A DNA stretch of 64,000 nucleotides from Gammaproteobacteria bacterium. Its GTDB lineage: Bacteria; Pseudomonadota; Gammaproteobacteria; Burkholderiales; Burkholderiaceae_C. The notes below the pieces were generated by a model. The model had not been told where the DNA came from. It saw only the letters and a list, made by a program, of their open reading frames with translations, and ran no database searches. The stretch is taken from contig JAHJOG010000032.1 in the NCBI GenBank assembly GCA_018820395.1, positions 15,276 to 79,275 on the forward strand, in the 5' to 3' direction. The position numbers and the translations under genes are program-made. Numbering within the stretch: the first letter of the stretch is position 1; every line of letters begins with the position of its first letter. Shown here piece after piece: positions 18,819 through 43,118 of this stretch.

Positions 18819-20918
18819 TCAAACCAAGCTCCTGGTTAAAACAAAGAGGTGGCGTTTTGCGCGAGTGGCTGCCACATGTAATAGTGATCGCTCAGCCACC
18901 TCAGTCTCACCAGAGACACCTGCGTCTTCCTCCCGCGCGAACAATCCGGCGTACTTAGTTGCGCCCTTGTACGCAGCGATGATCACTACACCGAATTCAA
19001 GCCCTTTGATGCGGTGCATGGTGGCCACGCGTACGCCGTGCGCGGACGGGTCATCGGGCGCCGACCGCTCCAAACGGAGCGTAGCCACCCCCGCCTTCTT
19101 CAGGCCGTCTGCGATAGAATCGACATCGTCGTTCGTGCGCGCGGCGATACACACTTGGCGCGGCTCGATTGAGTCATCGGCAAGTTGCTTCAGGATCGCC
19201 TTGATGTGCTTGATGTCGTCTTTTAGGGAAGACGACTCGATCACGTCTGGTCGATCGCCGTGCGTCAGGGAACGATACCCGCGCAGGGTGTCGATGTTGC
19301 CGTCCAAATCGTCGATCGCGCAGCCTTCCAGCTGTGCACAGGCCCAGCGGCGGATCTCGTCCGTTGTTCGGTAGTTCACCTTCAGGTTCCGACTGCGCCC
19401 ACGCACCTCGATCCCCACGCGACTAAGCACGACCTTGTGTCGATAGATGCGCTGGTGCGCGTCGCCGACGATGAACAGGTCATTTGCTGCGACGGGTACT
19501 GCCCCACGGATTAGTTCGAACGCCGCAGGACTGATGTCTTGTGCCTCATCAATCACCATGGCGCGAATGCCAAGTTCAGTCGCTTGGTCTGCCAAGAGCC
19601 GACGCGCATCGCGAAAGGACTCCTCTGGTTCACGAAGGTTCGCACCGTGCAGCTGCGCGCGGTACTCGGCGAACACCGGCCAGATCGCTTTCCTGGTGGC
19701 ACGTCCCAACTGCCCACCCCGACCAACTCGGCTGGCTCGCATGTAGTCCTCTGCGGTCTCGCATCCCTGTGGAAGTACCACACGCTCGTACTCAGCGCGC
19801 ATGAACTGCTGCGTCAGGTCCGCCGACGTCGGCATGGCCGACATTGCGGCCTGCCAGTAGCTGCGCCGCGCACTCTCGTCATACAGCAGCTCGGGCTTGT
19901 AGCCGAATCGTCGCAGCACCGTTGAGGCCCATTGGTCAAGATTGACGACCAGGATCTTCTCCAGCTCTTGCGGTGTGCAGAGCAGTTCCAAGTGCTGGCG
20001 AATGTCGTCCGACAGTGTTTTGGTAAACGTCGTGAAGACGACTGGCCTGCCTGGGAGCGTAGAAAACTGCCGTGCGAGTCGCGCTGCTCTGTGCATGGCA
20101 ACAACCGTCTTCCCGGTACCGGCACCGCCCGTGACCTTCACCGGCCCTGCCCAATCGCGCTCCACGAGCTTGCGCTGGCTGGGGTGCAGGAACACCCGCC
20201 AACGTTCAAGCGGTGCGGCAAGCAGCGCTTCCAGATCGCTGTCGTCGGTTAGCACGACAAAGTGGCGCTTGGTGGCGTCGCGATCCAGTGCCGCAACGAA
20301 ATCCGCGGGGTCGACGGTCTCCGTCGCAGTCTGGTCGGCGACGATCTTTTCATACGACTCACCGGCGGCGAACATGAACAACGCTTCGAACGCTTCGTCC
20401 GGGAGCTGCGGCTCCAGCGCCTCCAACTCCTCGTCTGAAGCTACCGCGCGTACGGCAGGCAGCATTTCGTCAGGCACGCCCAAGCGCCGAATCTCTCGGT
20501 CTTTGAGGCTGGCGAAGAGGCCCGTGGCCACCGCAGCCGCATCGGGCACAACGGCGGCCTCTGAGGTGGTCGCTGCCTCCACCGCATAAATTTGAATGCT
20601 GCCGACATCCGGGTGAATCGCAACGCGGTGGCGACGAGCCCACTGGTACGCATCGTCGTGACGGTCGACCCACAGGAGGCAATAGACGTTGCCCACATCC
20701 GGCTTCAGCACGATTCCACGAACGTTGTCGTTGACGCGAACCGATCGCATGTTCGGGTCCGCTGCATCGCGGATGCGTTCGTAGTTGATGCCGGAAGCCG
20801 TAGGGTTCTGCCTGAACTTGGCCACAAACGTCAGCACGGCTTGCTGCTGATCACGCGGCACGGCAGCGAACGACTTAAGGAAGTCATCAGACATCGCGAT
20901 CTTGGGTGCCAGCGACAT
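18819..20918 (-). CDS. UvrD-like SF1 helicase with an N-terminal RelE/ParE-fold-like domain
   Basis: N-terminus 'YERIRDAADPNMRSVRVNDNVRGIVLKPDVGNVYCLLWVDRHDDAYQWA' has a RelE/ParE-like pattern. Helicase motifs: 'VTGGAGTGKTVVAMHRAARLA', 'MVIDEAQDISP', 'LFIVGDAHQRIY', 'VATMHRIKGLEFGVVIIA' and 'LLHVAATRAKRHLFV'. AAGGAGG lies inside the preceding gene, and the start is 1 nt after the upstream stop. Confidence 0.85.
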   Translation of the reverse strand: MSLAPKIAMSDDFLKSFAAVPRDQQQAVLTFVAKFRQNPTASGINYERIRDAADPNMRSVRVNDNVRGIVLKPDVGNVYCLLWVDRHDDAYQWARRHRVAIHPDVGSIQIYAVEAATTSEAAVVPDAAAVATGLFASLKDREIRRLGVPDEMLPAVRAVASDEELEALEPQLPDEAFEALFMFAAGESYEKIVADQTATETVDPADFVAALDRDATKRHFVVLTDDSDLEALLAAPLERWRVFLHPSQRKLVERDWAGPVKVTGGAGTGKTVVAMHRAARLARQFSTLPGRPVVFTTFTKTLSDDIRQHLELLCTPQELEKILVVNLDQWASTVLRRFGYKPELLYDESARRSYWQAAMSAMPTSADLTQQFMRAEYERVVLPQGCETAEDYMRASRVGRGGQLGRATRKAIWPVFAEYRAQLHGANLREPEESFRDARRLLADQATELGIRAMVIDEAQDISPAAFELIRGAVPVAANDLFIVGDAHQRIYRHKVVLSRVGIEVRGRSRNLKVNYRTTDEIRRWACAQLEGCAIDDLDGNIDTLRGYRSLTHGDRPDVIESSSLKDDIKHIKAILKQLADDSIEPRQVCIAARTNDDVDSIADGLKKAGVATLRLERSAPDDPSAHGVRVATMHRIKGLEFGVVIIAAYKGATKYAGLFAREEDAGVSGETEVAERSLLHVAATRAKRHLFVLTRSLV

Positions 20919-20919
20919 G

Positions 20920-23900
20920 CTAGGCCTCCTTCAGGTTGTTCATCAATGCCACGGGCAACGGGCCCTCGGTCACCACAAAGCAAGTCCACCCAGCGGATTC
21001 GAATTTGGCCTCGGCCCCTGCATCCGGCAACAGGATGGTGACCCGAACTGCCGGCCAGGCCATCTCTGATTCGGCAACGATGCGCCCCTTGTCATCCAGC
21101 AGTTCGTAGCCGACCTGCGGTGCGGGCAGACCTGCGACGGCCAGGGCATGGGCCCAAGCTTGAGTCTCGCGCAGTACTAAGCTCAACGCCTCCACCCACG
21201 CGGCAGGCAGGCCGCTGGTCTGCTGCTGCAACACCGGTGCGTTTTGCAGCGCCTCCAGGCCTGGCATATCGTCAGCGCCGGCCCAAACGTGCCGGAGTGG
21301 CAGCAACAGATTCATGCACTGCCAGAGCTGTTGCCAGCGGGCTTGGCGTTCGGCTTCCGGCACAGAGTCGGGGGCCCACTCAACCACGAGCATGGGTTCG
21401 TGCTGCAGAGCACCGGTGCCCTTCATCAATTCGCTGAGATGATCGGGGTGGCTGCCCGCAACAAGCCGCACCACGCTTCCAAGCTGCCGAACTCCAAGGC
21501 GATGCTTGTTGTAGTCCGGCAGCAGCGACAGCTCTTCCAGCCGGTGCCAGAAGGCACCCTGGCGCATCGCCGCGAGCACAGTCGTATCCCCAGGTGGCAT
21601 GACCAAGCCGATCGCGAGCGCAACGCCGAGCTTTCGCATCTCTTCGTGGCGCCATTCGCTTAGTCGCTGATGAAGCTGCATGAACGGGGACAGAGACTTG
21701 AAACCGTTGGCGGCGACCGGCAGGCCTTGTACTTCACACATCTTGGGCACGACGTTGCCACCGCCCTCGATCAGGAGCGTTGGCCAGGGTGACGGCGTCG
21801 CCGAGTCTTTGCCCTGCAGCACAGTCTCGATGTCGTCCCAGGTCAGCGTCCAGACGGAGAATTCCCCACTCTTGGCGACGGCCATGCGCTTGGCCAGGTC
21901 GAGCGGGATCGAGTCCTTGTGGAACTGCCATCCGTCAAGGAAGACGGCGATCGGCAGATCCTCTGCGCCGTCGTCTGGCCAGAGCACGAAGTCCGGCTTG
22001 CAGGCCACGACAACGCCGCCGCTGTCAGCCAGATTCACCTGCAGTTCCACCCGCCAGCGGCGGTTGTCGGCCTGCAGTTGGTACCCAGGCTTGCCCTTGA
22101 ACAGCACCTCCGTCAGGCTGTAGCGCTTGCCGCCATGCTCGCGCCGCAGGGCCTCAATGAAGCGCTTCTCCAGCGTGCTGTCAAAGAGCTGGTTTCCGGT
22201 CTGCACGCCCGACAGGTTGGCCACCTGCTTCAGCGATCCCTTGTGCTGCACCACCTCGCTCAACAGCTTCTGAGCGATTCGGCGCGAGACTGATTCCCGG
22301 TCGTAGCTGTTGTGATACGCGTAAACGCAGTGATAGCAACCATCCGCCTCGGCATCCTGGTTGCAGACGCACTCGTTCAACGCCTGAAGGGCCAGTTCCA
22401 GTACCTCCAGTAGCGGCTCGGGGGCCCGCATCAGTTCCTTCAAGTAGCCGGTTCCGCCAGGTACGCTGTCATAGATCACCAAGTAGCACCGAGGTATCTC
22501 TTGCCCTGCGGCCATTCGGATGTCCAGCGCGATGCGAAGGTGATCGACCGCCCCGCGGAAGCGCCGCGTGAGTCCCAGCTCCAACGCTGAGACGAAGCTC
22601 AACAATCGCTCTTCCGTATCGCCAAATCCCACTTCGGGCAGGAACAGTCGGATGCCCTCGCTCGCGAACTCTCGGTACAGAAACACGCACTGCTGCGCAC
22701 TTGCCTCCGGGTCCTTGCGCTTAGAACAGTACGGCGCGTGATTGCGGTACATATCCTCGGCCTTGCGGCGCCGTTGAATCGTGCCGCACTCAGGGCAGAT
22801 GCTGAACCCCGGCCGGTTCATCTCGGCACCTGCGATGGCCATCGGGGAGGCATCGGGTGCCTGCTCGCCGAAGTTCACTTCGCGGAAGGTCACCTTGTCC
22901 AGAAACTCGAAACCGAATGGGAACTCCGGCTTGTCAATCACGTAGGCATCGCGCACAGCATCGGGCGGGCTGTCCACCAACGCCTGGCGAACGTAGAACC
23001 CGCGGTGCCGCTCGTCCGAGTCATCGGCAATCCGACTGTCCCGGTCTAGCGTTCGTGCGAAGACCGTCGTGAGCTTCAGCATCTCACGCACTCGCCCGCT
23101 GTCGCGCCACATCGTGTCGCCGCAGCGCGGGCAGTTGGTGTGGTGGTCGCCTGAAGAAAGCGGCTCGGTATATGAGCATTGTCTGCAGAACCGCCACGCC
23201 TCGGGCTTGATCTTGGAAACGTCCACCTGGTTCACCACCACACGTCGCCCTTCGGCGTAGAAGGTGTTGTTGGGTGCCAGCTCGGTGATGGCGGAGGCAC
23301 TTGGGCGCTCGTACTCGAAGGTCAACGGATCAGGTACTCCGCCGCCGGGCTTGGCTTCGCGCACGATGATCGAACGCAGCAACACCCCCTGCTCAGGAAA
23401 CGCATAGTTGGGCAGCAGGCCCTCGTCGGTCAGTACGTTCAGCGTCGCCTTGCCCTCGATGCTGCCGACCAGGCGCGAAAGCGCCGTTCGCTCTTGCATC
23501 AAGCGCACCAACTCAGCCTCGTCTTCCTCACCGCGCACGGCCAGGGCCTGGAGCTTTTCAATCTCCTTTTTTGTGCGCTCGGCTTGCCGCTTTAGCTCGT
23601 CTACGTCCTTTGCGATGCCATTGAGCTTGTCGATGATTTTCCAGCCCAATGAGCCAGGCTGGTCCTTGCTGCCGTTGATGAATTTCGACAGCCAGTCTTG
23701 CGTCGATTCGGTCAGCGGGTTCCTGTCTGCCTGATTGAACAGGCGCACAAACCGGTCCAGAAGCTCGCCCCGATGCTGCTCGACAAAGTTCAGCCACTGA
23801 TACGGGAACTTCAACATCGCCTGCCCGCGAATCGCGTTGAAGACTGAGCGAATTTCGCCTGGAATGACCCCTGCCTTGCCAGACTCCCGGACCCAGCAAT

Positions 23901-26900
23901 CCAACGTGAAGGCGGTCAACTGCCGTTCCAGGACGGCGGACGCATTGAGAAACACGCCAGGCGCATTCACGCTGCCGGCCATCATCTCTCTGGGCTCTTC
24001 CCAGAAGAACAGATCGTGCGGGCGGCTGGCCGCCATGGTCATCAGCAGCGCATTGCCGGTGCTCCGGCCTGCACGTCCGGCGCGCTGCACATAGTTGGCT
24101 TGCGTCGGCGGCACGGAACACAACAACGTCGACGACAACTCGCCGATGTCGATGCCCATCTCCAAGGTTGGCGTCGCTGAGAGAACGTTAATGCCGCCAG
24201 GCCTGTCGCTGTCGGACTTGAAGTCGCGCTCCACGCGCTCGCGCGTTTCGCGGGGAAGCAGGCCCGTGTGCTCATGAGCAACGACCCGTTGAATCTCTGC
24301 GGTGAGATACAGCTTGCGGTAGAAGTCGCCCCAACCACCATCGGCATGCAGGCCGCCCTTACATCCGGTGCGCCGGCAAGGCTGATCGTCGAAGTCCTCG
24401 GACAGCCCCGATAGCACCTCGTTGTGGCAGGTGGCGCACCGCCACTTGCGCCCGCCCAACTCGACCCTAAAGGCGGCCGGCGCTAGCCCCCAGACGTGAA
24501 TCTCGGGCTTGTCCAGCGCTTGCTCGTTGGCCGCCAGGCCCGCCTCAGACAGCGCGTCAAGTGCCAGGCGATAGACGTCGCGCACGACCTGCTCCGCGCC
24601 CAGCGCGACCAGGTTCAACTCCTGCAACGCCTTGAACGCCCAATCCTTGAAGACGCGCGACTCATCGCGATCGATGCTCGTGCACAGCTGGTACTCGGGC
24701 AGCGTCAAGAACCGCGGTGGCCTAGGTCCCGACAGCATCTTTTCTTGGCTGGGGTTTTTCCTGTAGGCCTGCGGTCGGCAACCGACGCGCGCGAAGAAGG
24801 CCAGCATCGGGTCACGCCAGGCACCGATGCGCTGCATCTCGCCAATCAGCCCACGCAGGAATACGCTGACCTCCTCGGGCGTCACGCCCTTCAGGACTTC
24901 CACCTGCTCGCGCAGGCGGACCCGCAGCCAGTCGATGGCGGTAGCCATTGCGTCGGACGCAGGGGTGACGCACGCCGTTCCGGTCGCCACCAAGGTACGC
25001 CCCACATGTGCGTCCTGTCCAAACTCGGCGTTGACAACCCACGGCACCACCTGCGCCATCTGCACCGGCACCTGGCTGCCGTTTGGAAGCTCGCCGGTGG
25101 TCATCAGCGCGTCTACATCCCGCATCCAGTGCAGCTGCGGCGGCAGGAAGTTCGCCACATAGTGGTTATCGCCCAAAGTGGCCCGCCACTGCGCTTCAAA
25201 GGCTTTGGGCAACTGCGCCAGCGTCAAGGGCTGTCCAGTCGCGACGGAGGCTGCGATGGTCTGTGCCAACGCTGGACGCAGGTTCAAGCGCCAGGTGCGT
25301 GCGGCCAGGAACCCAGCCCTGTGCGCAGCGTCCTGCACCGAGTCTGAAAACGCGATGAGCTTCTTGTCCTGGTTGTACCCACTGCTGAAGAGTTGTCCCA
25401 CCATTACGGCCGCCAAGCTGGCCGCCTGCGAACCCACGATGGTCAACGTGTTGTGCCCGCCACAGTACGGGCAGTTGTGATGCGATTTGGTGAACGGGGC
25501 GCCGTTGCGCATGCCCTGCTTGAGGTTGGCCGTGATGTCCACCGCCAGCAGCGTCTCGTGCCCGCAGTGCGAACAACCCTGCTGCGTAACGGGGTGCAAG
25601 GTTCCGCATCGGGGGCAAACCTGATTTCGCTCGAAGACGCGTCGGTCCGCGGCCGGCGTTGCCGGAAACAGGAAGCGCGTAGACACGTCCTCGCCGAAGA
25701 ACGCGCTGTAGAAGAGGCGCAGGTCCTGCTGCAGTTGGTTCGGGCTGGTCTTGGGCAGCGTTGCGCCCCACCCGGTGGCGTGGCAGTCACGGCAGTGGAT
25801 CACCGGCAAGTGCTGATGATCCTTGTCGGCTTTGCCTAGATCGTCGTGGTGCCGAAGCACCGGCTGCGCATCCACCTTGGCCACCATGCGCCGCAGTTCA
25901 CGCTGCCAGATCTCAACCTTCACCTGAAGGAAGAAATCCTGATGACCCGGCTTTCTGGCATGCGCCACCAGCGCGAGCAGGCTGGACAGCCACAGCAGCA
26001 CGAATCGCTCACTCGACGCGTCACTCTGGCGCTTGGGCAATCGTCTGCGCAAAAGCGCCAGCAGGTCATCGACGGGCACAGACTTCGGCCCGAGCCGGTC
26101 CAGGTCCCGAAGCAGATTTTGGAATGCGAAGTGGCTCTTCAGCCGTCGGCCCAGCTCGCAACGTCGTTCGAAGTCCCAAGCAGCATCCGATGAAGCCGTC
26201 TCGTCGAACCAAAGCCCTGCCTGCACCGCGAGGTATGCGTGGAGATTGGGATGGTTGGCCGGGTCCAGGCGCTCCTCGTCGGCGGGCTGCGGGCTAATGG
26301 TGTACTCCACCACGGCGTCACTCAGGTAGTCGCCTACTGCCACACGGTCTTCGCCGATCACGGCGTCGGCATCCATGGCTTCGCCAAAGATGTCGCGAGC
26401 GAAGTTCAGCAGGCTGTCACCACCTCCGTCGCCCAGCGTGGCCGAGGTACCCACACACACCAGCTGACCGGGCGCGGCTCCCAGCCGGCCCTTCAGTCGG
26501 CGAATCAGACAGGCCAAGTCCGTGCCCTGTGCGCCGTCGAAAGTGTGCAGCTCGTCCACCACCAGGTAGCGCAGCGTGTCTGGGCGTTGCTGCGCCCAAA
26601 GCGGAACGTCGGCTGCACGCAGCAGCAGAAAGTCCAGCATCTTGTAGTTGGTCAACAAGATGTCCGGTGGATTTGCTCTCAGGGCGTCGCGATCGGTGAT
26701 AACCGTGAACGTATTTGGGTCCAACTCCTTGACAGTGCTGGACTCCTCCGCGGGCGTGTCACCGACATAAAGACCGGCACGCACCCCGGCCAGCGCTGCC
26801 GTCTTCACAATGGTCTTCGCTACGCGCCCAGCTTGGTCGGTGGCCAAGGCGTTCATCGGGTACAGGATGATCGCCTTGATGCCGGGCCGCCCTTCACCTC

Positions 26901-27258: not shown

Positions 27259-27276
27259 TGGTTGGCGCTCCTTGGC

Positions 27277-28623: not shown

Positions 28624-28648
28624 TGTCCTCTCTGGAGCCAGATACGGC

Positions 28649-33570: not shown

Positions 33571-33654
33571 CTGCGTTTGCTCCTTTGATGCCCTTTCGCT
33601 AGCAATGCGAAGGGCCAATGAACGGTCGTACTTCCTGTGTTGGCGGCGGCGCGG

Positions 33655-35259
33655 CTACTTCATCATCTCCACCAGGTTCAAGCCCTTCGCCATCACTTGG
33701 ACGCCCTGCGGACTCTTTCCCGTGGCGAAAACCGTTTCCCAGAAGCTGTTGTTCGCCTTGCCGCCGAACACGGTCTCCGAGAGATCCTTGTTGGCCCACA
33801 GCGGCAAGCCCGCCAGATTGCGCACGAAGTTGCGGATGTTGGTCCACAGTTGCTCTGGGAACGGGTACTGGAACAGCCGTTCCTTCTGCGTGGGCATGCC
33901 TGTATTCACGAAGTAGGTGTACGCGATCTGCTCCACGAATTTCAGCCAGTTGTAGAGCACTTCCTCCTTGCTCATGCGAAAGGCGCGCAGGTGCGGCAGT
34001 GGGAAGTTCGTGCCCTTCTGCAGCTGGCTTTCGATCTTGTCGGTGCCGATGTCGCTGTCGAACTTGCCGATGTAGATCTCTTCGGCAATCACGTTCATCA
34101 GCCGGATAAGTTGCGAAGTCTCGAGTTCCCGTGGGTTCTGTCCATCCTCCAGACCGAAGTGCAGCGGTGTATCGAGCACCTCTTGGTAGATGAAGAAGGA
34201 GTAGAAGGTCTTGTCGATGGAGCTGTACGAAAGCGGGCGCTCCTTGCCGCGGCCGCCGTAGTCGATGAAGTCGCGCAGCTTGTTGTCAGCGGACGAAGTC
34301 ACGCCATCGCGCACCGCGTCCAAGATGTAGCGCTTCATCTCGCGCGACTGGCCCTTGAAGTACGACACGAGATCACGCTCGCTGAAAGCCAGGTCCTCGC
34401 TTGAGCGGCTAGTCTCGGTGCGGAAGCGGTCGATGCGATCACGGTACAGCGTGCTGCCCAGGTGCCGCTGCACCGACTTGTCGAACGCCACCTGCTTGAG
34501 CGTGGTGCCGGCGTTGGTATTGGTGGTGATCAGCGTATCGGGGTCGGGGTCGATGAACACGCGCACCGGCATGGCCTTTGCGCCCAGCATGATCTGCGCT
34601 GCGGCCTTGTGCTGGCCGTCGAACACGTGCACAGCGCTCTTGCCTCCCGCGGATGTCATCCACGCCAGCGGCACATGCAACTGCGGGCGCTTCAGGTAAA
34701 ACTCTTCGACTAGTTTGCTGATGTTGCTGCCTATGGCGCGCGGGTTGATGCGGTCGTCGTGCCGCAGGTACTGAATGGGCAGCTTGACGAAGAAGTAGCG
34801 GAAGCCGCTCAACTCGTCCAAGTACACCGGCACTGTGTAGATCGCCTGATCGCCCACGGCGCTGAGCGTGAACTGAATCTGGTCGCCGACCAGCTTGAAG
34901 CTCAACTCGGCCTGTCCGCCGCCAGCCTGCGTAAGGATGTCGCCCAAGTTGGGGCTGCGGTTGTCAGGCTCCAGCGCCTCTTTCAATGCGGCAAAGCGCT
35001 GCAGCAGCCGGGCCACTTCCAGATTCGTCGCCTGCTTGGAGCGGTTGCAGCTGTCGTGCGTGAGCGCGAAATTGCTCGGGTCGTCCTTGCCGCCTGTCTT
35101 GAGCGGGATGACATGGTCGACGTCAAGGTTGTCCTTGTGCAACTGAAGGTCCAGCACCTTCTCGCAGATGAAGCAGTGCCCGCTCTGGGTTTGGTGCAGT
35201 GTCTCGATCAGCGCCTTGCGCTCGTCGGAGGTCTGGCGGTTGAGGAACAGCGATGACAT
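33655..35259 (-). CDS. HNH nuclease fused to a DGQHR (DndB/ParB-like) domain
   Basis: The ATG at 35259 overlaps the MTase stop (TGATG). HNH: 'CFICEKVL...LDVDHVIPLKTGGKDDPSNFALTHDSCNRSK'. DGQHR-like: 'AVHVFDGQHKAAAQIMLG', followed by a long helical region. Confidence 0.8.
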   Translation of the reverse strand: MSSLFLNRQTSDERKALIETLHQTQSGHCFICEKVLDLQLHKDNLDVDHVIPLKTGGKDDPSNFALTHDSCNRSKQATNLEVARLLQRFAALKEALEPDNRSPNLGDILTQAGGGQAELSFKLVGDQIQFTLSAVGDQAIYTVPVYLDELSGFRYFFVKLPIQYLRHDDRINPRAIGSNISKLVEEFYLKRPQLHVPLAWMTSAGGKSAVHVFDGQHKAAAQIMLGAKAMPVRVFIDPDPDTLITTNTNAGTTLKQVAFDKSVQRHLGSTLYRDRIDRFRTETSRSSEDLAFSERDLVSYFKGQSREMKRYILDAVRDGVTSSADNKLRDFIDYGGRGKERPLSYSSIDKTFYSFFIYQEVLDTPLHFGLEDGQNPRELETSQLIRLMNVIAEEIYIGKFDSDIGTDKIESQLQKGTNFPLPHLRAFRMSKEEVLYNWLKFVEQIAYTYFVNTGMPTQKERLFQYPFPEQLWTNIRNFVRNLAGLPLWANKDLSETVFGGKANNSFWETVFATGKSPQGVQVMAKGLNLVEMMK

Positions 35260-38200
35260 CAATTGGCTCCCTGACCTTGTTCGAAGTGCGCCCACGCGGT
35301 GCGGTAGTCGGCCTCGCGGTCGGCCAGTGCGAAGGGGGCGACGTATTGGATGGTGCGGTCCACCGGGCCGTCGGGCAGGGTGTCGTCGCGCACGGTGCGC
35401 TCGATGACAGTGCCGGCCGGTGTGTGCTGCTTGCCATTCTTGGGCTGCACGTCTTCCCAGCCAAGGCGACGTACTTCGGTGCGGCCGTCGGGGTAGCGCA
35501 CCGCGCAGTGCCGGTCGTTGCGGCCGGCCTTGCGCGGCAGGCCAATGCCCACTAGGCCTTTGCTGGAGGTGAACACGATGCGTCCGCCGGCGTCGTACCA
35601 GGTGTCGCGCTCGTACTGGCGCATCACCGGGAACTGCACACGGTAGATCGTGAGCAGTTCGTCCAGCGTCAGGCCCAGGGCCTGGGCTGCCAGTACGTCG
35701 ATCTCAACCAAGAGTTGGCGGCGGGCGTAGTCAGTGCGCAATGCGCAATGGCGATGCCAAGTGGGCTGCAGCGCAGCGAAGAAACTTGCTGGTAGGCGGG
35801 TGTCGGTGCTGGTCCACGAATCGTTTCGGAATCGCGGATCCCAGGCCGCCTGCCAGACGCCAGCCCAGTGCGTGGTCAGGCAGTTGAGGCTGAGTGCGCG
35901 CACACACAACTGGGGCGTTCCTGCGAGCAGGGGCATCAGGCTGGCCGTAGCGTTCCGGAAGTCCTTCTTCCCCGACACGCGGACGAAGAAGTCGAAGGGC
36001 AACGAGGCCCAGTAGCCGGCTGCTGGCACGAGTGCGCTGCTGTCCTTAATCGCGACCGAGAAGACTCCATCGATATGCGCGAACCCGGGCGGCAGCAGGA
36101 CCGGGCGCACCGACCGCTCGTCGCCTGGGTGCGCGCCGCGACGCGAGGCCACGCGAACATAGGCGGTCACTGGCTTCGGACGCGTTTCGCCTACCTCCAG
36201 CCAACCTACTCGACTTGTGCGCGCGACGTACTGTTGCTCAACCAACGCTGGCACATAGTTGCTCCGCGGCAGGTAGTCATCCGGCACCGCGTCGAGGTCG
36301 ATCACGTCGTAGTGGCTGTTCTGTCTGCACACAGCGCGCGGCGTCTTGTTCAGCGGGTTGCCAACAAAAAAGTGCGGACCGGAGAGGACGAACTGGGCGG
36401 GCGAGGTCACGAAGTCGGTCTGGCGACGAATAGTGCCGTCGCGCTGTGCCCCTGTCTCGTGCCACATCTCCAGCGTGAAGTAGTCGTCCTTCAGGTCACC
36501 CAGCCGCCGTGGCACCTGGGCAAACTTCTCCAGCACTGACACCAACTCGCGGCTGTGCACCGCCGGCAGGCGGGCCTGCGCTGCGGGCGTGTCGGCCGTG
36601 TCGTAGAGCTTGGCAAATGTGCCAAGCAGCGCCTGGTCCACGTTGATCACGCGGCTAGCGTGGCCGTCAATGTTCCATCCGCCCGCGTCGCGCTTGATGC
36701 CGGGTGTGGTGCCGCCGCCAGGGTGCTGCTGGCTCGTATCGACCGTAGCCGGCGCGAACACATTGGCCATGTGGCGGAATTGCGGTGCGGAGCGCGGTTC
36801 GCCGTACAGGTTGATGCTGAACTTGGTGTTGTGGTGAACCTCGGCAAACAGCGTCAGCTGGTTCTCGAACTGGTAGTGCGCTCGCAACCGCGGATACGCC
36901 GACGCCCGCAACTCGCCGCCTTTGGGGTCGTCGTACACACCCTCAGGGTGGAGCAGCCCCTGCACGCCACCGCCAACGCGCCACGCCACCGGCAGGAAGC
37001 ATTTGTAGAGATTACTCTGCTGGCCCTTGAGCAGCGGGAAGTTCTGCACTGCATTGAGGAAGGCGGCAAGCCCTTCGGTGGTGATGCATTCGTTCACGTA
37101 ATCAGCCCGCGCCGCCAACGCGCCGTCGAACACCGCTTCGCGCTGGCTGGCTGTCTCCTGAGCGCTAAGGCGGCGAATCGCAAATCGCGGATCGAAGTCA
37201 GACAGCAGTGCCTGCTCATTCCATTCCACCTTGATCCAGGGCGGATTTCCCAGCACTAGATCGAAGCCCTTCCGTGCCTTGAACTGATCGGCAAACTCCA
37301 ACTCCCAGTGGAAGAAGTGCTGTGCCTGCGCCACCTGCTGCGCGCACTTCAGCGTTGGCAGCGCGGCCACGAGCGCATCGATATCCACTTGCCCGTAGCG
37401 ATCACGCTCAGGCGTGAAGTCCAGCGTGGATTGCGGCAGCGTCTCGGGGAAGAAGTCACCCGCCGGCGGTGCCTCGACCAGCGAGGCGTTGCCCAACAGC
37501 AAGGTTTCTAGCATGAACCACCATTCCTCCCGAGTGGGCAGGTGCGTCGCTTCGCCCAAGGGCCAGAACCACAGCGCGGACCACAGGTCCATCGCCAGCT
37601 TCAGCCGCCTGTAGGGGCTGGCATTTTTGACCTGTTCCGACAGCATCTCGCGCTGAAAGGTGGCGTCCTTCTGTGCGGTCGTGGTGGGCGCTCGGTTGGG
37701 CGCCGGATCGGGCCACACGTGGAGTTCATCGCTGGTGGCCTTGCGCACGCGCGCCAGTTCCAGCGCGTGCTGCTGCCAAAGGGCCTCGGCGGCTACGGTT
37801 AACGACTTTGCTCGGCGCACCTCGTCAGGCGTCAGTGGCGAAATGAAGTCCGAGCGCCACTTTTTAAAAGTCTCGAAGGCCTTCGGCTCCAACGCCTTGA
37901 CCACCTTGTCGGTGAAGCTGGCCATACCGTCGGCCGGCAGCACGAAATGGAAGACATCACTGTCTGCGGGTGAGGCAGTCATGACCACCGCACGCGGCAC
38001 AGCCGCGCGCCAGTCGTGTTCGGGCACGCCCTTCTCACCTCGGCCTGGCGTGAGCTGGGCGGCGCTGAATACATCGCGCCGGGCACCCACCAACGAGTTG
38101 CCTTTGCGCAACTGCATGCCGAACCACGGCACGTGGCTACCCTTGAAGATGGCGTTCAGCCACAACGACACCTCGGCCAGTTCCACGGCTACAGGGTTCA

Positions 38201-40232
38201 AGTCAACGCCGAAGACGTTGTTGTCAGCGATGAACATCTTCACCCGCTGCTTCTCTTCCGTGTACTGGTCGTGCGAGATGGTCTGGCCCAGTTGCTTTTG
38301 TTTGGCCTGTAGGTAGGCCTCAGCCAGCTGGTTGATGGCCTCATTCAAAAACGCCGCGCTGCCCATGGCAGGCTCGCAGACGGTGAGTTTCAGAATGTCG
38401 TCGGCCGTCTGGCAGGTCGGCAGCAGCTCCTTCAGCGCGTGCTCCACCAGGCACCTGGTCAGCACTTCGGGCGTGTAGTACGAAGCTGACTTTTCCCGCG
38501 TCCGGCCAGCCAGGCGGTAGATGAACGTGCCCTTTTTGTACTGGCGCGGCTCGCCGCCGAACAGGCGCTCGGCGTCGGTGTACTGATTGATCTTGCTGGC
38601 TGGAACGAAGTAGGCCGCGTCCAGCGGGTCCACCTCGGCATCCTTCTTCTTCTCGGCGGCAGTGGGCGCGGGTTGCTCGTCGTCGTCGCCATCGTTACCG
38701 GCTTCAACTTCCCCATCACCACCTTCGATCTCGCCATCTTCACCCTCTGCAGCCGGTTTCTCCTTCTTGCGCTTCGGGTCGGGCCGCACCTCGTACAGAT
38801 CGTCCTCGGCGAAAAAGCCGCGGAACGACAGCAGCGCTTCGTACACCGCGCCTAGCTGGTTGATGCCTAGCGTGCCGTAGCTGATGCGGCCTCGACTGCT
38901 TTTCCCGCTCTTTCCACCGCCTTCGCGCGACAACGACATCAGGCGGACTACTTTCTGCAGCACCTTGTTGCGCAGCTTCACGGTGCCCAGTAGAGGGGTC
39001 TGCTTGGGGTCGAACAGGTGGCCTTGCAGTGGGGCGATGGTGAACCCGGTGTCCAGCAGCTGGTCGGCGCTGCCCAGCAACTCGTCCTGCTGTCCACCTT
39101 GGGTGCCACGCTTGGGGAAGCCTTCCCAGATCAGCAAGAAGAGCTGCTTCAGGCTTTCGTGAAAGTAGGTGCCTTCCTGCGATTCGGCCGTGGTGAGCGG
39201 CATTTGCTCCAGCTCACGCAGGTGCTCCAGGCTGTAGCCCTTGAGGTAGGTTTCGGCCGTGATCGGCGCGTAGCCCAAGTCCGGCCGCGCCTCGATGTAG
39301 AAGAGGAAAAGCAGCCGGTACATGTAGCGCAGGCATTCGCGACTGAGTTGGTCGGCCAGGTCGATGTCGTTGCGATCGAAGACCTTTTCCTTGGCGACTT
39401 CGCGCTTGTAGCGGACGGCTTCGTTGCCGATCGCTTCGATGCATTCGCGCAGTGCGTACTTCAGGTCGGTGGAGACTTCGAACGCGTGCTTGTGCGAGCT
39501 GTCGTCCAGCGTGTCGAGCATGGCCGTGCCGCCGGATGCCGGCAGCACCGAGTCGGCGCCGGCCAGCGCGGCGAAGGCGCGGAACTGCTTTTCGTCGCGC
39601 GGGCCGAAGAGTTCCGGCAGGTTGAAGCTGAGCAGGGCCTTGCGACCCCACTTGCCGCGCTCGATGAGCAGCCAGGTTTCATGGTGCACCAACAGCACCC
39701 AACGCGGCGGCGTGTCGTCACTGAACACGGCTTTGGTGAGCACCTCTTCCCAGTCGGATTGGCTCGCCTTGCCATCCGTGTTGAGCGGCGGGCACCGCAG
39801 AGGATGCGCCTCTTCGTCGCCTGGGGCGGCGGGTGGGGCTACAGCGGCGGCGATCACGAGTAATGGGTGAGCTTTGGCGTCGCGGTACACGGCCAGCACG
39901 GGCGGGCTGCTGTCCGCCAGCTCCAGTGTCTGGGGTGCTGTTTCGTAGCCAATGGCTTGTAGCAGCGGCTGCACCAGGTCGATCAGCAGCGGCATGCGGT
40001 CTGCCAACTTGCGCTCGGCCAGGAAGCGATCGCGGGCGCGGAAGTAGGCGGCGCCACCGGCAGTGCGCAGGCGTGAAACGGGGCTCGCTGAGCCTTGCTC
40101 CTTCCAGCGGTCGAACAATGGCTTGAGGTCGCGTTCAACGATCTCGTCCAGGTAGTGTTGGCTGTAGAACTCGTTGGCGTTTTCCAGCCCGGTGATGGCG
40201 AAGCTCATGGTGGTTCGTGCCTGTTTCGGCAA
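35259..40232 (-). CDS. Large (1657 aa) gamma-class N6-adenine DNA methyltransferase, Eco57I/type IIG-like (DrmMI-like)
   Basis: Motif I 'VCEPAMGSAAFLNEAINQL' and motif IV 'DLVLGNPPWIKVEW'. Acidic Gly/Asp/Glu-rich insert. Abuts the SNF2 gene with a 0-nt gap. Confidence 0.9.
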   Translation of the reverse strand: MPKQARTTMSFAITGLENANEFYSQHYLDEIVERDLKPLFDRWKEQGSASPVSRLRTAGGAAYFRARDRFLAERKLADRMPLLIDLVQPLLQAIGYETAPQTLELADSSPPVLAVYRDAKAHPLLVIAAAVAPPAAPGDEEAHPLRCPPLNTDGKASQSDWEEVLTKAVFSDDTPPRWVLLVHHETWLLIERGKWGRKALLSFNLPELFGPRDEKQFRAFAALAGADSVLPASGGTAMLDTLDDSSHKHAFEVSTDLKYALRECIEAIGNEAVRYKREVAKEKVFDRNDIDLADQLSRECLRYMYRLLFLFYIEARPDLGYAPITAETYLKGYSLEHLRELEQMPLTTAESQEGTYFHESLKQLFLLIWEGFPKRGTQGGQQDELLGSADQLLDTGFTIAPLQGHLFDPKQTPLLGTVKLRNKVLQKVVRLMSLSREGGGKSGKSSRGRISYGTLGINQLGAVYEALLSFRGFFAEDDLYEVRPDPKRKKEKPAAEGEDGEIEGGDGEVEAGNDGDDDEQPAPTAAEKKKDAEVDPLDAAYFVPASKINQYTDAERLFGGEPRQYKKGTFIYRLAGRTREKSASYYTPEVLTRCLVEHALKELLPTCQTADDILKLTVCEPAMGSAAFLNEAINQLAEAYLQAKQKQLGQTISHDQYTEEKQRVKMFIADNNVFGVDLNPVAVELAEVSLWLNAIFKGSHVPWFGMQLRKGNSLVGARRDVFSAAQLTPGRGEKGVPEHDWRAAVPRAVVMTASPADSDVFHFVLPADGMASFTDKVVKALEPKAFETFKKWRSDFISPLTPDEVRRAKSLTVAAEALWQQHALELARVRKATSDELHVWPDPAPNRAPTTTAQKDATFQREMLSEQVKNASPYRRLKLAMDLWSALWFWPLGEATHLPTREEWWFMLETLLLGNASLVEAPPAGDFFPETLPQSTLDFTPERDRYGQVDIDALVAALPTLKCAQQVAQAQHFFHWELEFADQFKARKGFDLVLGNPPWIKVEWNEQALLSDFDPRFAIRRLSAQETASQREAVFDGALAARADYVNECITTEGLAAFLNAVQNFPLLKGQQSNLYKCFLPVAWRVGGGVQGLLHPEGVYDDPKGGELRASAYPRLRAHYQFENQLTLFAEVHHNTKFSINLYGEPRSAPQFRHMANVFAPATVDTSQQHPGGGTTPGIKRDAGGWNIDGHASRVINVDQALLGTFAKLYDTADTPAAQARLPAVHSRELVSVLEKFAQVPRRLGDLKDDYFTLEMWHETGAQRDGTIRRQTDFVTSPAQFVLSGPHFFVGNPLNKTPRAVCRQNSHYDVIDLDAVPDDYLPRSNYVPALVEQQYVARTSRVGWLEVGETRPKPVTAYVRVASRRGAHPGDERSVRPVLLPPGFAHIDGVFSVAIKDSSALVPAAGYWASLPFDFFVRVSGKKDFRNATASLMPLLAGTPQLCVRALSLNCLTTHWAGVWQAAWDPRFRNDSWTSTDTRLPASFFAALQPTWHRHCALRTDYARRQLLVEIDVLAAQALGLTLDELLTIYRVQFPVMRQYERDTWYDAGGRIVFTSSKGLVGIGLPRKAGRNDRHCAVRYPDGRTEVRRLGWEDVQPKNGKQHTPAGTVIERTVRDDTLPDGPVDRTIQYVAPFALADREADYRTAWAHFEQGQGAN

Positions 40233-43118
40233 TCAGGCGGCTAGAACGGCCACGATGGTGATCTGGGCGCGGTCATCCAGCTCCAGCGTGTCCTTGATCC
40301 ACTGTTGGTAGTTCTTGAACAGGTCGGCGGTGTCGTTTTCGAGCTGCTTGCGGCGTGCGGCATTGACCTGTTCGATACCCTTGGCGAAGTCCAGCTCCAG
40401 CTGGGTGAAGTGCTTGAGCTCCAGCGTCTTGAGCTTGTCCAGCTCGCGGCCCAAGCGCGCGCGGCAGTCGGCGTCGAACGCCTGCTTGATGGGCTTGAGG
40501 TGGCGCTCGGCGGTCTGCACCGCTGCAGGCAGTGCCGCTTGGATGTGCGCCAAGGGGATAGCTTGACCATCGTTCGCCAGCGATGCGGCTCCAAAGCCCG
40601 TGCGCTGCATGACTTCGTCGAGAGTCAGCACGGCCTGGGTCTGACCGGCAGCGTTGAGGTGCACGCCCATCCACTGTGTCAGCATCGTCTGCCCGCGCCG
40701 GTTGGGCGCCTGGGCCAGCACCACCACGATGGCTTCGTCGGCCGAAATGCCTTGCTGCACGCGGATGGCGGGCGCGCTCATCCGCTTGAACAGGCCCATC
40801 AGCTTGTAGTCCAGCCATTGGCTGATGGGGTGCAGTGGCCACAGGTAGTGCACCTGCGGCCAGGCGCTGGCATCACGGGCCTGCTGGATGGCGGCGTCCA
40901 CCACCGCCTTGTCGGCACTGAGGGCGAACTGGTTGTCGATGGGCCACATTTCGCTGGCCAGCTCGCGCTTGAGCAAGGGCGCCAAGTCGCTGCTGGGCTG
41001 GAAACTCAGCGTGCGTTTGGCGTCGTCGCTTTGCACGGGGTTGTATTCCCGCGGCGAGGAGCTGCGCAGCCAGGTCAGCGCGTCGCGCAGGTAAGCGTAG
41101 TCGTCCCCGAACAGGCTGGGGACGCTCCCCGTGGGGGCGGATGTGGGCGCGGGCGGCGCAGCCCGCACTGTGGCAGGGCTGGCGTCTTGAACCATTGGCG
41201 CCGCATCGGCTTGGGCCGCGCCCCAGAGTGCTTCGAAAGGGTCAACGTCGCCTTGGGCCAGTTGCGCTGCAAATGCGTCGGCCGTAGTGTTCGACTCTAT
41301 GGCGGAGGCGACTTTGGCCACCTCCAGCTCTTCGTCGTAGAGCCCCATGAAGGCGGACGGGTCACCGATGTTCTTGGCGGCCTGCTCATCCTTGTCGATC
41401 AGAATCTCCAGGTAGCGCAGGTCACCACGAATGCGCTCGTGCTGAGGCACAGTCAGCATGTAGCCGATCTTGGGCACCTGCAGCTGTCCGTAACGGTCCA
41501 CCCGGCCGTTGCGCTGCTGGAAGACCATCAGCGACCAGGAAATGTCGAAATGGATGAGTCGGTGCGACTGGTAGTGCAGGTTCAGTCCCTCTGAGGCCAC
41601 GTCCGAAGCAATCAGCAGGCGCAGCGGTGCATGCGCGCTGCCAAACGCCCTGACGGTGGCCTGAATGTCCACATCGGGTAACTGGCCGTGCAGCACCGCC
41701 ACCGCGTCGGCTGACAGACCCAGAGCCTTGGACAGTTCGGCCTGCAGGAACTTGAGCGTCTCGATGCGCTCGGTAAAGAGCACCAGACGATCGGACGGAT
41801 CGCGACTGTCCCACTTCCAATGGGCACCGGAACGCAACTGGTCGATCAGGTGCTGGAACTTGCTGAACTCTGCGGGGCCAATGGCTGCGACCAGATCTTG
41901 CAGTTCGCTCAGGGCTGCGATGTCGGGGTGCGCGGCATCCTTGGCCTGGAGCTTGCGCAGACGCTCCTTCAAGGTCTGCAGGCAAGCTGCCGGAGACGAG
42001 AACAGCGCCTTCTCCAGCGTGGTGCGGAACAACATCGCGCCGTCGCGCGGTTGCCCCGCATCGGACGCGAGTTTCAACTCGCCCAGGCAGTTGAAGGCCG
42101 CGTTCTCGGCCGCGCTGGCCGGGCGCTCCAGGCGAAAGACTTCGCGCTCAGGGAAGTCCTGGCGCATCTGGTCCTTCACGTCCTTCTTGAATCGGCGCAC
42201 GAAGAGGTGCGCCACGTCGTCGCGCGTGTAGTCCGCACCGGCCGGCAGCACGGTCGGGTCCAGCATGCGCATCAGGCTGGCGAAGCTGTCGCGTTTGCCG
42301 TTGTGCGGGGTGGCGGTCAGCAGCACCAGCGCGTCTGACCGCGTGGCCAGCAGGCCTGCCAGGCGGTTGCTTTGCGTGCGATTGCCCTTGTACGAGACGT
42401 TGTGCGCCTCATCAATGAGGATGAGATCCCACCAGGCCTTTTCCAGGTAGTGCCGGTACTCGCTGTCGCGCTTGAGAGTGTCGACCGAGATGATCGTGCG
42501 GTCGAAGTAGTTGAACGGGTTGTGGTTCGCCGGGATTTCGCGCCGGATGCGCTGGATGCCGGCCGAATCCAGCCGCGTCAACGAGATGGTGAAGCGGTTC
42601 CAGAACTCCTGCTGAAACTGCAGCATCATGCTCTTGGTGGTTACCACCAGCACCCGCCTGGCCTTGCCGCGGCGCATCAACTCGGCGGTAAGGATGCCGG
42701 CCTCTAGCGTCTTGCCCAACCCGACGGTGTCAGCGATCAGCAGCCGCGGCCTCAGTTGGCGCAGGACCTGGTGGGCTGGCACCAGCTGGAACGGCAGGGC
42801 ATCCATCACGGCCTTGTGGCCCTGAACGATGGCTTCGCCTTGGAGGGCCGACTGCCGCAACTTGGACTCGACGTAGAGGCGCGAAGCGATGAAGCTCGGA
42901 GACTCGTCGAATACCAGCTCGGTCTTGGCCGGATCGATGAGGGTCACTTCCTCCAGCTGGGACAGGAAAAGCGCCCGGCGGTTGCGGACGGTCTCGGAGA
43001 TGCCGATACAGCTGAGCTGCCAACCGCCCAGTTGACAGACATCGGCGTTTTGGACGATCCATTCCTCGTCGCGGATAAGGGCTCGCGCGCCGGGCGCGGG
43101 GGCCTGTTGCAGTTGCAT
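40233..43118 (-). CDS. SNF2-family ATPase/translocase (DrmD-like)
   Basis: 'LIADTVGLGKTLEAGILTAEL', 'WDLILIDEAHNV', 'LLTATPHNG', 'LIASDVASEGLNLH' and 'QQRNGRVDRYGQ'. First gene of the minus-strand operon, with an AT-richer 263-nt upstream region. Confidence 0.9.
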   Translation of the reverse strand: MQLQQAPAPGARALIRDEEWIVQNADVCQLGGWQLSCIGISETVRNRRALFLSQLEEVTLIDPAKTELVFDESPSFIASRLYVESKLRQSALQGEAIVQGHKAVMDALPFQLVPAHQVLRQLRPRLLIADTVGLGKTLEAGILTAELMRRGKARRVLVVTTKSMMLQFQQEFWNRFTISLTRLDSAGIQRIRREIPANHNPFNYFDRTIISVDTLKRDSEYRHYLEKAWWDLILIDEAHNVSYKGNRTQSNRLAGLLATRSDALVLLTATPHNGKRDSFASLMRMLDPTVLPAGADYTRDDVAHLFVRRFKKDVKDQMRQDFPEREVFRLERPASAAENAAFNCLGELKLASDAGQPRDGAMLFRTTLEKALFSSPAACLQTLKERLRKLQAKDAAHPDIAALSELQDLVAAIGPAEFSKFQHLIDQLRSGAHWKWDSRDPSDRLVLFTERIETLKFLQAELSKALGLSADAVAVLHGQLPDVDIQATVRAFGSAHAPLRLLIASDVASEGLNLHYQSHRLIHFDISWSLMVFQQRNGRVDRYGQLQVPKIGYMLTVPQHERIRGDLRYLEILIDKDEQAAKNIGDPSAFMGLYDEELEVAKVASAIESNTTADAFAAQLAQGDVDPFEALWGAAQADAAPMVQDASPATVRAAPPAPTSAPTGSVPSLFGDDYAYLRDALTWLRSSSPREYNPVQSDDAKRTLSFQPSSDLAPLLKRELASEMWPIDNQFALSADKAVVDAAIQQARDASAWPQVHYLWPLHPISQWLDYKLMGLFKRMSAPAIRVQQGISADEAIVVVLAQAPNRRGQTMLTQWMGVHLNAAGQTQAVLTLDEVMQRTGFGAASLANDGQAIPLAHIQAALPAAVQTAERHLKPIKQAFDADCRARLGRELDKLKTLELKHFTQLELDFAKGIEQVNAARRKQLENDTADLFKNYQQWIKDTLELDDRAQITIVAVLAA

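Follow-up and report, generated by a model that had tools for sequence, protein, structure and literature searches.

A predicted ARMADA type II operon of a Gammaproteobacteria bacterium carries Mokosh type I and two accessory genes at its armB-armC junction

Layout of the eight-gene cluster

We analyzed a 64,000-nucleotide (nt) stretch of DNA from a Gammaproteobacteria bacterium (contig JAHJOG010000032.1, positions 15,276 to 79,275), hereafter referred to as the window, with a focus on a cluster of putative defense genes between window positions 18819 and 43118. The cluster consists of eight large open reading frames (ORFs) that are all on the minus strand, co-directional, and tightly packed, and their coordinates reproduced those of a preliminary description made from the DNA letters. 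The encoded proteins (P1 to P8) appear to combine the four components of ARMADA type II, a phage defense system encoded by armA, armB, armC, and armD, with four additional proteins. The features are listed below in the direction of the genes, with protein lengths in amino acids (aa).

Non-coding stretch upstream of armA: 43119-43381, minus strand, 263 nt; probable promoter region of the unit
armA (P1): 40233-43118, minus strand, 961 aa; BrxHII/RapA-like SNF2 ATPase, first gene of the predicted ARMADA type II core
armB (P2): 35259-40208, minus strand, about 1649 aa (longest ORF 35259-40232, 1657 aa); PglX-like N6-adenine DNA methyltransferase (MTase)
Cargo 1 (P3): 33655-35259, minus strand, 534 aa (alternative start at 35295, 546 aa); HNH and ParB/Srx-like (DGQHK) protein
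Cargo 2a, mkoA (P4): 30109-33570, minus strand, 1153 aa (alternative start at 33618, 1169 aa); Mokosh type I Ser/Thr kinase and SF1 (Upf1/IGHMBP2-like) helicase
Cargo 2b, mkoB (P5): 28649-30112, minus strand, 487 aa; Mokosh type I PLD-family nuclease
Accessory 3 (P6): 27277-28617, minus strand, 446 aa (longest ORF 27277-28623, 448 aa); unnamed family with an N-terminal PLD-like fold
armC (P7): 20920-27258, minus strand, 2112 aa; DEAD/DEAH helicase of the YprA family, with MZB/DUF1998 and a nuclease region at the C terminus
armD (P8): 18819-20918, minus strand, 699 aa; GajB-like UvrD helicase, its N-terminal domain about 240 aa long

The genes are separated by short spacers or overlap. The armB stop codon and the start of the HNH gene overlap (TGATG at 35259, with the ribosome-binding site cagggag), an 84-nt spacer with the ribosome-binding site aaggag precedes ATG 33570 of mkoA, and mkoA and mkoB overlap by ATGA (30109-30112). 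An 18-nt spacer, again with aaggag, separates P6 from armC at 27258, and a single nucleotide (20919) separates armC from armD. Two start codons were reassigned. The armB start is most likely ATG 40208 rather than TTG 40232, since the N terminus of the product (1649 aa) then matches that of Escherichia coli ArmB (MALVG..NEFYSNHYL aligned against window MSFAITGLENANEFYSQHYL), and the spacer to armA becomes 24 nt. P6 probably starts at TTG 28617, since its homologs begin with MSTFTVVNE, giving 446 aa and a 31-nt spacer behind mkoB. The preliminary description had reported the two overlaps and the 84-, 18-, and 1-nt spacers as we found them, as well as ribosome-binding sites of the AGGAG type; its 0-nt armA-armB junction (40233/40232) and its 25-nt spacer before P6 are replaced by the 24- and 31-nt values. 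Its domain calls for the individual genes (SNF2, N6-MTase, HNH with DGQHK, Ser/Thr kinase with SF1 helicase, PLD, DEAD/DELH with MZB/DUF1998, and UvrD) agreed with Pfam, PADLOC, and motif searches, and its five helicase-type ATPases are reduced to four.

A crude scan placed the number of terminator-like hairpins in the cluster at background (13 versus 9.9 +/- 2.7 and 9 versus 10.6 +/- 3.7) and found none in any minus-strand spacer, in line with the absence of terminators between genes noted previously. A consensus scan found no sigma-70-like promoter within the cluster, a result that is weak for this type of organism and too crude to exclude one. The 84-nt spacer before mkoA was considered as the site of a regulatory hairpin or terminator and was rejected since it folded no better than shuffled sequences (z -0.27). 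No other non-coding stretch in or next to the cluster approaches the 263 nt upstream of armA in length (internal spacers reach 84 nt at most), and these 263 nt contain the terminator-like hairpin (43233-43219) of an upstream gene encoding 306 aa. The arm promoter is probably located there as well; no consensus sigma-70 site was found in the stretch. The 306-aa ORF was also considered as a conserved regulator, like the BrxR-like protein in the homologous locus L090 (fetched homologous loci are given L numbers), and was rejected since it had no Pfam match and no homolog in any fetched locus.

The core genes match ARMADA type II

ARMADA type II comprises four genes in the strict order armA-armB-armC-armD (PMC12458937; Bell et al. 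2025, bioRxiv), encoding a BrxHII-like SNF2 protein, a PglX-like MTase, a YprA-like helicase with a Vsr-type nuclease, and a protein with RelE-like and GajB-like UvrD parts (PMC12458937). In E. coli, it confers direct, non-abortive protection from phages that requires all four genes, the Walker/ATPase motifs, and the NPPW motif (PMC12458937, PMC13463889); the second of these studies examined O-island 172 of enterohemorrhagic E. coli (EHEC) (mBio 2026). We arrived at this system through the loci of P6 homologs, in which the genes were ordered SNF2, MTase, P6, 2100-aa helicase, and UvrD helicase, without the HNH and Mokosh genes. The window proteins were then compared by blastp with those of a reference E. 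coli locus, DruE-ArmA-ArmB-ArmC-ArmD beside tRNA-Phe in strain CUVET16-819.

All four proteins aligned over nearly their whole lengths, and their sizes in the window and in E. coli were close (ArmA, 961 and 952 aa; ArmB, 1657 and 1642 aa; ArmC, 2112 and 2113 aa; ArmD, 699 and 704 aa). ArmA was 44% identical to its E. coli counterpart (residues 4-961 against 3-949), with Pfam SNF2-rel_dom and Helicase_C domains and the DEAH box ILIDEAH at residue 233. ArmB was 46% identical (residues 11-1654 against 1-1639), carried NPPW at residue 996 and the Pfam domains Eco57I and N6_Mtase, and matched the PADLOC model REase_MTase_IIG at 2e-242. ArmC was 40% identical over residues 1-1811 and aligned again over the C-terminal 90 aa, residues 1811-2020 being without an aligned counterpart; it had Pfam DEAD, Helicase_C, and MZB domains, the motifs GTGSGKT and DELH, and nine CxxC motifs. 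ArmD was 45% identical (residues 5-693 against 6-691), with Pfam UvrD-helicase and UvrD_C domains and GAGTGKT at residue 265. The alignment of ArmD thus takes in its N-terminal 240 aa. The nuclease of ArmC has been assigned to the Vsr type (PD-(D/E)xK) and the N-terminal domain of ArmD described as RelE-like (PMC12458937); searches of PDB sequences with the last 476 aa of the window ArmC and with the N-terminal domain of the window ArmD gave no match.

The core genes retain the order and strand armA-armB-armC-armD, and the NPPW, Walker A, and DExH motifs that are essential in E. coli are also present in the window proteins. The two loci differ at one junction: armB and armC overlap by 1 nt in E. 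coli, whereas 6.7 kb and four genes lie between them in the window. Because of the identities to ArmA to ArmD, the low match to DruE, and the failure to reach the curated DISARM models (both below), we assign P1, P2, P7, and P8 to ARMADA type II as predicted full-length orthologs of E. coli ArmA to ArmD. The preliminary description had recognized no named system of this composition; its SNF2, MTase, 2112-aa helicase, and RelE-UvrD genes are those of ARMADA type II, in the same order and with 40-46% identity.

Resemblance to DISARM, Druantia, and MADS

The preliminary description had instead likened the core to DISARM class 1 and the 2112-aa protein to DruE, and labels of this kind were also obtained when the eight proteins were searched, as it had proposed, with PADLOC. 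The database used, PADLOC-DB 2.0, contains pre-2025 models, and the labels returned were DrmD, type IIG/DrmMI, DruE, GajB, MkoA, and MkoB, with no match for P6; the top matches of ArmA were DrmD and BrxHII-type models.

DISARM class 1 (DrmD, DrmMI, DrmA, DrmB, and DrmC) shares with the window core a SNF2 helicase, a large adenine MTase, and a YprA-family helicase with DUF1998, and ARMADA was named after its resemblance to DISARM (PMC12458937). As the identity of the core, DISARM class 1 was rejected since the curated cut-offs were missed widely. The DrmD model NF038317 (cut-off 610 bits) gave 320.8 bits in two partial stretches, and the DrmA models gave 20-24 bits against cut-offs of 950-999. 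For DrmC (cut-off 133), the only PLD protein of the active type, MkoB, scored 16.6 bits. Unlike DISARM class 1, the window core has helicase and MZB/DUF1998 fused in one 2112-aa protein, no DrmC, and an additional RelE-UvrD gene.

DruE and ArmC form sister clades of YprA helicases of about 2100 aa, and their C-terminal nucleases are of different types (PMC12458937). The PADLOC DruE profiles matched P7 at 1e-106; in direct comparison with the proteins of one E. coli locus, however, P7 was 40% identical to ArmC over residues 1-1811 and only 23% identical to DruE over 836 aligned columns. Druantia was rejected as the core identity on this comparison, and no PADLOC match to its partners (DruA-D, DruM/F/G, and DruH) was found among the eight proteins. 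MADS (mad1-mad8) was also rejected, as its matches were at the level of domains (the MkoA kinase domain matched mad6 and MADS6); the MADS2 model gave 27 bits with ArmB against a cut-off of 720.

The genes between armB and armC

By sequence comparison, the genes interposed between armB and armC are predicted to be a three-gene cassette (HNH and ParB/Srx-like gene, mkoA, and mkoB) plus P6. The first protein of the cassette has a Pfam HNH domain at residues 41-88 and the motifs DVDH and DGQHK. Its AlphaFold2 model, with a predicted local distance difference test score (pLDDT) of 73, matched ParB-N, sulfiredoxin, and PadC folds with template modeling (TM) scores of 0.5-0.66 over about 90 residues and E values of about 1e-2; these matches are consistent and weakly suggest a ParB/Srx-like fold around DGQHK. 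More than 2800 proteins belong to this family; the best 120 that were listed, from beta- and gammaproteobacteria, were 68-96% identical. Elsewhere, too, the gene immediately follows N6-MTase genes, both in the presence and in the absence of Mokosh. In one such case (L089:8004-21605, Methylosarcina fibrata KB889965), an HNH gene with 80% identity is located between a MADS-like MTase and mad5, its start overlapping the MTase stop codon, in a MADS-like locus that encodes a helix-turn-helix protein, an N6-MTase, a mad5-like specificity subunit, a NERD-kinase, MAD7, and an 1816-aa protein.

The same pair of domains, a ParB/Srx-like domain and a His-Me (HNH) nuclease domain, occurs in type IV enzymes of the GmrSD/BrxU kind, in which their order is reversed (in GmrSD, an N-terminal DUF262 with DGQQR and a C-terminal DUF1524 HNH). 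The armB-armC slot of other ARMADA II loci can be occupied by GmrSD, which also precedes mkoA-mkoB in Roseateles. P3 was therefore tried as a permuted GmrSD and rejected: although the folds agree, the profile-profile (hhalign) probability against four GmrSD cargo proteins was 0.3, and no homology is claimed for this reason. No match to the Pfam domains GmrSD_N and GmrSD_C was found in P3.

Mokosh type I consists of MkoA, a COG1112-type SF1 helicase often with a Ser/Thr kinase domain, and the PLD nuclease MkoB. P4 matched the MkoA profile end to end (PADLOC PDLC03920, 1.6e-233, profile positions 7-1108 of 1112) and has Pfam Pkinase, AAA_11, and AAA_12 domains with the motifs HRDVKP, DFG, and GPPGTGKT. 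P5 matched MkoB (PADLOC, 2.9e-78) and has a Pfam PLDc_2 domain with one HxK(x)4D motif (HRKSLVCD, residue 416). It was also 100% identical to a protein (locus tag KKC79_00405) of a metagenome-assembled genome of a Gammaproteobacteria bacterium, and the window probably derives from a genome of the Burkholderiales type. The Mokosh type I parts seen in the preliminary description are thus a complete MkoA and MkoB pair by PADLOC profiles. This pair stands alone elsewhere; in the window, it differs in lying inside the operon of another system, preceded by the HNH and ParB-like gene.

P6 had no match in Pfam, PADLOC, or NCBIfam, and 205 homologs were found. Its AlphaFold2 model (pLDDT 76.6) matched FAM83/BJ-TSA-9, Zucchini, NucT, and the PLD-like domain of TrmBL2 over about 160 residues (E value, 4e-4), a modest match with a TM score of 0.5 on the target. 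An active PLD nuclease was rejected since the catalytic histidine of the HxK motif is missing: residues 21-295 contain no histidine, and the family alignment has no invariant histidine or lysine there. On these model-based grounds, P6 is probably a non-catalytic binding module.

P6 sits between armB and armC in seven further loci (L001, L005, L013, L015, L017, L019, and L085). It was rejected as a universal component of ARMADA II, as it is missing from E. coli and, among the 55 sampled loci with a visible armB, from 53. Its distribution in ARMADA II is patchy, and where it is present its divergence roughly parallels that of the Arm proteins (ArmC about 40% and P6 about 46% identical). A solitary homolog lies next to HipAB in Dokdonella, and distant homologs (at most 35% identity) lie in other MTase-based loci. 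These are in metagenome-assembled genomes of Verrucomicrobia, Planctomycetes, and others: a homolog lies between BrxC and a PglX-like MTase in L040, after the SNF2 gene in the DUF1156/DUF499 BREX-related loci L042, L048, and L074, and in the order SNF2-P6-MmeI-like MTase in L049. The overall distribution suggests that P6 is an unnamed accessory family common to several methylation-based systems.

Modules occur separately in other genomes

Metagenome contigs were scanned with the N terminus of ArmC, and ORFs were classed by comparing them, with phmmer, to the proteins of the window and of E. coli; the resulting ArmC-anchored sample comprised the best 80 of more than 568 matches. A second set of genomes was anchored on P6. 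Of the four cargo genes, related ARMADA II loci have either none, the HNH gene only, or the 446-aa gene only. The order A-B-P6-C-D was found in Pseudomonas sp. (L001) and Chromatiaceae (L015), A-B-HNH-C-D without P6 and Mokosh in Paraburkholderia acidisoli and Pseudomonas baetica, and A-B-C-D, with its 1-nt overlap of armB and armC, in E. coli. A betaproteobacterial metagenome-assembled genome has ARMADA II with P6 followed by an inserted GmrSD gene, and neither HNH nor Mokosh genes. The Arm proteins of L001 (P6 only) and L090 (HNH gene only) were 67-79% identical to those of the window.

The cassette also occurs outside ARMADA. In L171 (metagenome contig Ga0427563_00073), a type III-like Mod/Res pair is followed by HNH-MkoA-MkoB, with 96, 87, and 78% identity to the window proteins. 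At the nucleotide level, the similarity of L171 to the window begins inside the 3' end of armB: L171:4750-4872, which precedes the HNH gene, corresponds to window 35260-35385 and is a decayed armB 3' end. It is about 125 nt long, is interrupted by in-frame stop codons, and carries an 11-nt deletion. This remnant indicates that the cassette of L171 was exported from an ARMADA locus, apparently carrying a piece of armB with it. In L172 (Roseateles koreensis, 4623-11428), the order is GmrSD-MkoA-MkoB, with MkoA 74% identical to that of the window; GmrSD stands where the window and L171 have the HNH and ParB-like gene. Ahead of Mokosh I, two different ParB-fold/HNH nucleases thus appear to be interchangeable. 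In L173 (Chromobacterium), MkoA-MkoB stand alone in a Tn7-like context with no MTase nearby (MkoA, 65% identity). A megablast search of a plasmid collection with window 27000-36000 found no plasmid relatives at that sensitivity.

These arrangements bear on the possibility that all eight proteins form a single new system, each being obligate. Tight spacing, overlapping start and stop codons, and shared orientation would be expected of such a system, and Variovorax sp. Root411 (L007, NZ_LMDW01000005) and the metagenome contigs L091 and L092 have the same gene order. These recurrences are confined to near relatives, however, with the ArmC N terminus 89-91% and P6 96% identical to the window, and the order was present in 2 of the 80 ArmC-anchored loci (one of the 55 with armB visible, and one contig too short for armB). 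In more distant loci the modules are separated from one another in every combination, and we regard an obligate eight-component system, which this synteny contradicts, as highly improbable. The preliminary description had named homologous loci whose modules do not occur together as evidence against one compound unit. Such loci were found: the HNH gene, mkoA-mkoB, and the 446-aa gene each occur without the others, with and without ARMADA. Of its alternative, a DISARM-type locus with captured embedded modules, the capture of modules is borne out by the synteny in other genomes.

The armB-armC junction as a cargo hotspot

In the ArmC-anchored loci, gaps between arm genes were counted at each junction at which both flanking genes were visible.

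armA-armB junction: both flanks visible in 31 loci, gap of at least 300 nt in 0
armB-armC junction: both flanks visible in 55 loci, gap of at least 300 nt in 30 (0.7-8 kb)
armC-armD junction: both flanks visible in 55 loci, gap of at least 300 nt in 1

Cargo ORFs of at least 200 aa at the armB-armC junction were co-directional with the operon in 39 cases and opposite in 3 (p = 6e-9). The armB-armC junction is a site-specific, orientation-constrained cargo hotspot across ARMADA II. The cargo is mostly unrelated from locus to locus, and relatives of the window with ArmA to ArmD 67-79% identical also differ in it. The cargo included a CBASS cyclase with a 2TM/NUDIX effector, Gabija GajA and GajB, Septu PtuA, AbiEii, AbiU, GmrSD/HEC-05, PD-Lambda-2_B, RmrA, a Schlafen-type protein, the candidate systems PDC-S06, PDC-S39, and PDC-M49A, and several ORFs without a match. 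In the P6-anchored genomes, the slot contains GmrSD, a full ZacABC set, or sacsin-like genes, located to one side of P6 or the other. Slot ORFs at L132:7289-8329, L125:3993-4928, L017:8696-9865, and L019:12028-13128 had no PADLOC match, nor a Pfam match where scanned. Given their company, the no-match ORFs of the slot are candidate new defense genes.

A chance juxtaposition of genes, with nothing special about the armB-armC site, would be conceivable in a defense island as dense as that of the window. Gaps in 30 of 55 loci, as opposed to 0 of 31 and 1 of 55 at the other junctions, a 39:3 bias in orientation, and spacers of 0-84 nt argue against it. We consider it extremely improbable because random shuffling of an island would not respect constraints of junction, orientation, and spacing.

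Insertions of this kind have a precedent in BREX and BREX-related loci, in which auxiliary or backup effectors are embedded in MTase-based operons (Nucleic Acids Research 2026, PMC12839542). As in ARMADA II, core genes there flank added nucleases or toxins (HNH, PLD/HKD, Schlafen, and OLD-ABC) within the same operon (PMC12839542). ARMADA differs from BREX in having neither PglZ nor BrxC, and ARMADA II embeds whole multi-gene systems (CBASS, Gabija, Mokosh, and ZacABC) at a single defined junction. For ARMADA itself, the hotspot appears to be undescribed. A keyword search of PMC12458937, with its supplementary tables outside the scope, returned nothing relevant on intervening genes, a hotspot, Mokosh, or GmrSD. 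In the parts of PMC12458937 and PMC13463889 that were covered, intervening genes are not mentioned, and we found neither the hotspot with its frequency and orientation constraint, nor P6 and the HNH and ParB-like family as recurrent companions of MTase-based systems, nor an armB remnant showing export of a cassette. Gene-neighborhood data in the supplement of PMC12458937 may already show the hotspot.

Proposed function of the locus

Taken together, we consider it very probable that the cluster is an ARMADA type II operon with four added co-directional genes, including a complete Mokosh type I system, that accumulated at the armB-armC junction. In such an operon, ArmB would methylate the host genome and mark self DNA, and ArmA, ArmC, and ArmD would attack unmethylated invading DNA; unmodified phage DNA has been suggested as the target by the EHEC study (PMC13463889) and by comparison with BREX. 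Read-through from the arm promoter ahead of armA would transcribe the cargo, which would add mechanistically independent layers of defense, with the HNH protein predicted to act as a DNA nuclease and Mokosh expected to hit phage nucleic acid via its helicase and PLD nuclease. Related loci may exchange cargo by recombining within the conserved flanks, armB and armC.

Several points weigh against this interpretation. The reference locus of CUVET16-819 differs from those of the experimentally tested strains, and its presumed equivalence to them rests on gene order, sizes, the adjoining DruE, and the tRNA-Phe island context. The ArmC-anchored sample was not random, and ORF calling on the metagenome contigs was mechanical, running from one stop codon to the next. 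At the window locus, co-transcription of the genes, the motif that is methylated, and the independence of the defense layers are inferred; consensus searches for promoters and terminators are weak in an organism of this type, and the 84-nt spacer before mkoA could contain a promoter of its own. P6, finally, may be a functional ARMADA partner in this lineage rather than independent cargo because its association with ARMADA spans deep divergence.

The most substantial alternative is a functionally coupled compound system, in which the embedded genes would depend on ARMADA and serve as its auxiliary or backup effectors. They could be licensed by the methylation status set by ArmB, recruited by ArmA or ArmC, or released upon inhibition of ARMADA by a phage, with P6 as an adaptor. 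Insertion at one junction and in one orientation is what selection for co-expression with the core would be expected to produce, the P6 family recurs in other SNF2/MTase systems (L040, L042, L048, L074, and L049), the HNH gene is repeatedly found directly behind an N6-MTase gene and overlapping its stop codon, and a similar role of backup effectors has been proposed for BREX (PMC12839542). However, the E. coli armABCD genes protect without cargo (PMC12458937), the HNH-MkoAB cassette is also found in a type III-like restriction-modification context, and MkoAB occurs with no MTase nearby. Much of the identifiable cargo, moreover, belongs to named stand-alone systems: CBASS, Gabija, Septu, AbiE, GmrSD, and Mokosh are self-sufficient. 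Because these systems also stand alone, such cargo needs no ARMADA partner. We regard functional dependence as unlikely. It is likewise doubtful that the junction is a selected docking site at which cargo is both co-expressed with and functionally wired to the core, with P6 as a shared adaptor or sensor; if it were, methylation-based immunity would have a general plug-in architecture in which P6 links accessory modules to SNF2/MTase machines.

For annotation, the preferred reading, an ARMADA type II operon with accumulated cargo, means that pre-2025 models, by labeling the core as DrmD, DrmMI, type IIG, DruE, and GajB, give the impression of a chimera, and that the correct label is ARMADA II with Mokosh I and two accessory genes. 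ARMADA II (2025-2026), Mokosh I, and the embedding of auxiliary effectors of the BREX type were already known. That one junction of ARMADA II hosts varied defense systems in about half of the sampled loci provides a concrete case of nested immunity. It raises the questions of whether cargo rides on transcription of the host operon, whether it acts in synergy with the host system, as already shown for ARMADA II and neighboring Druantia III, and whether it is exchanged by recombination in the flanking arm genes, to which the armB remnant of L171 points. The armB-armC junction is also a cheap place to seek new defense genes, and the HNH and ParB-like protein and P6 are two uncharacterized families that track MTase-based systems.

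Neighboring genes

The whole window looks like a dense defense island, possibly on an integrated element. Its other genes encode a DUF3987 protein, an IetA-like AAA ATPase, a McrBC-like pair, NYN and HNH proteins, a WYL regulator, a NERD-helicase, and AddAB-like proteins. The DUF3987 gene is at 550-2100. A tight, co-directional trio on the plus strand (5111-10634) encodes an Hsp70/actin-fold ATPase (830 aa), the IetA-like AAA ATPase (479 aa; PADLOC IetA, 6e-27), and a peptidoglycan-binding-domain protein (526 aa) and corresponds to no named system. Downstream of armD and on the opposite strand (13492-17892, plus), a 758-aa AAA_5/PDC-M26A protein and a 542-aa protein with DUF2357 and PDDEXK_7, followed by an NYN-domain protein, make up the McrBC-like pair, which looks like a restriction-type module. 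On the other side of the cluster, 44601-60006 encodes a 514-aa HNH_2 protein, a regulator of the WYL/WCX type next to a 553-aa NERD-SF1 helicase, a 763-aa double AAA ATPase, and an AddAB-like nuclease/helicase pair of 896 and 1321 aa.

Two of the related loci have a further pair of genes before armA (L001:1-1849 and L005:1-2056), encoding another SNF2 protein, of 1039 aa, and a product of about 600 aa that matched nothing in Pfam and gave only a weak match to PDC-M61B. This pair, which is missing from the window, could be another paired system, as Druantia III precedes armA in E. coli.

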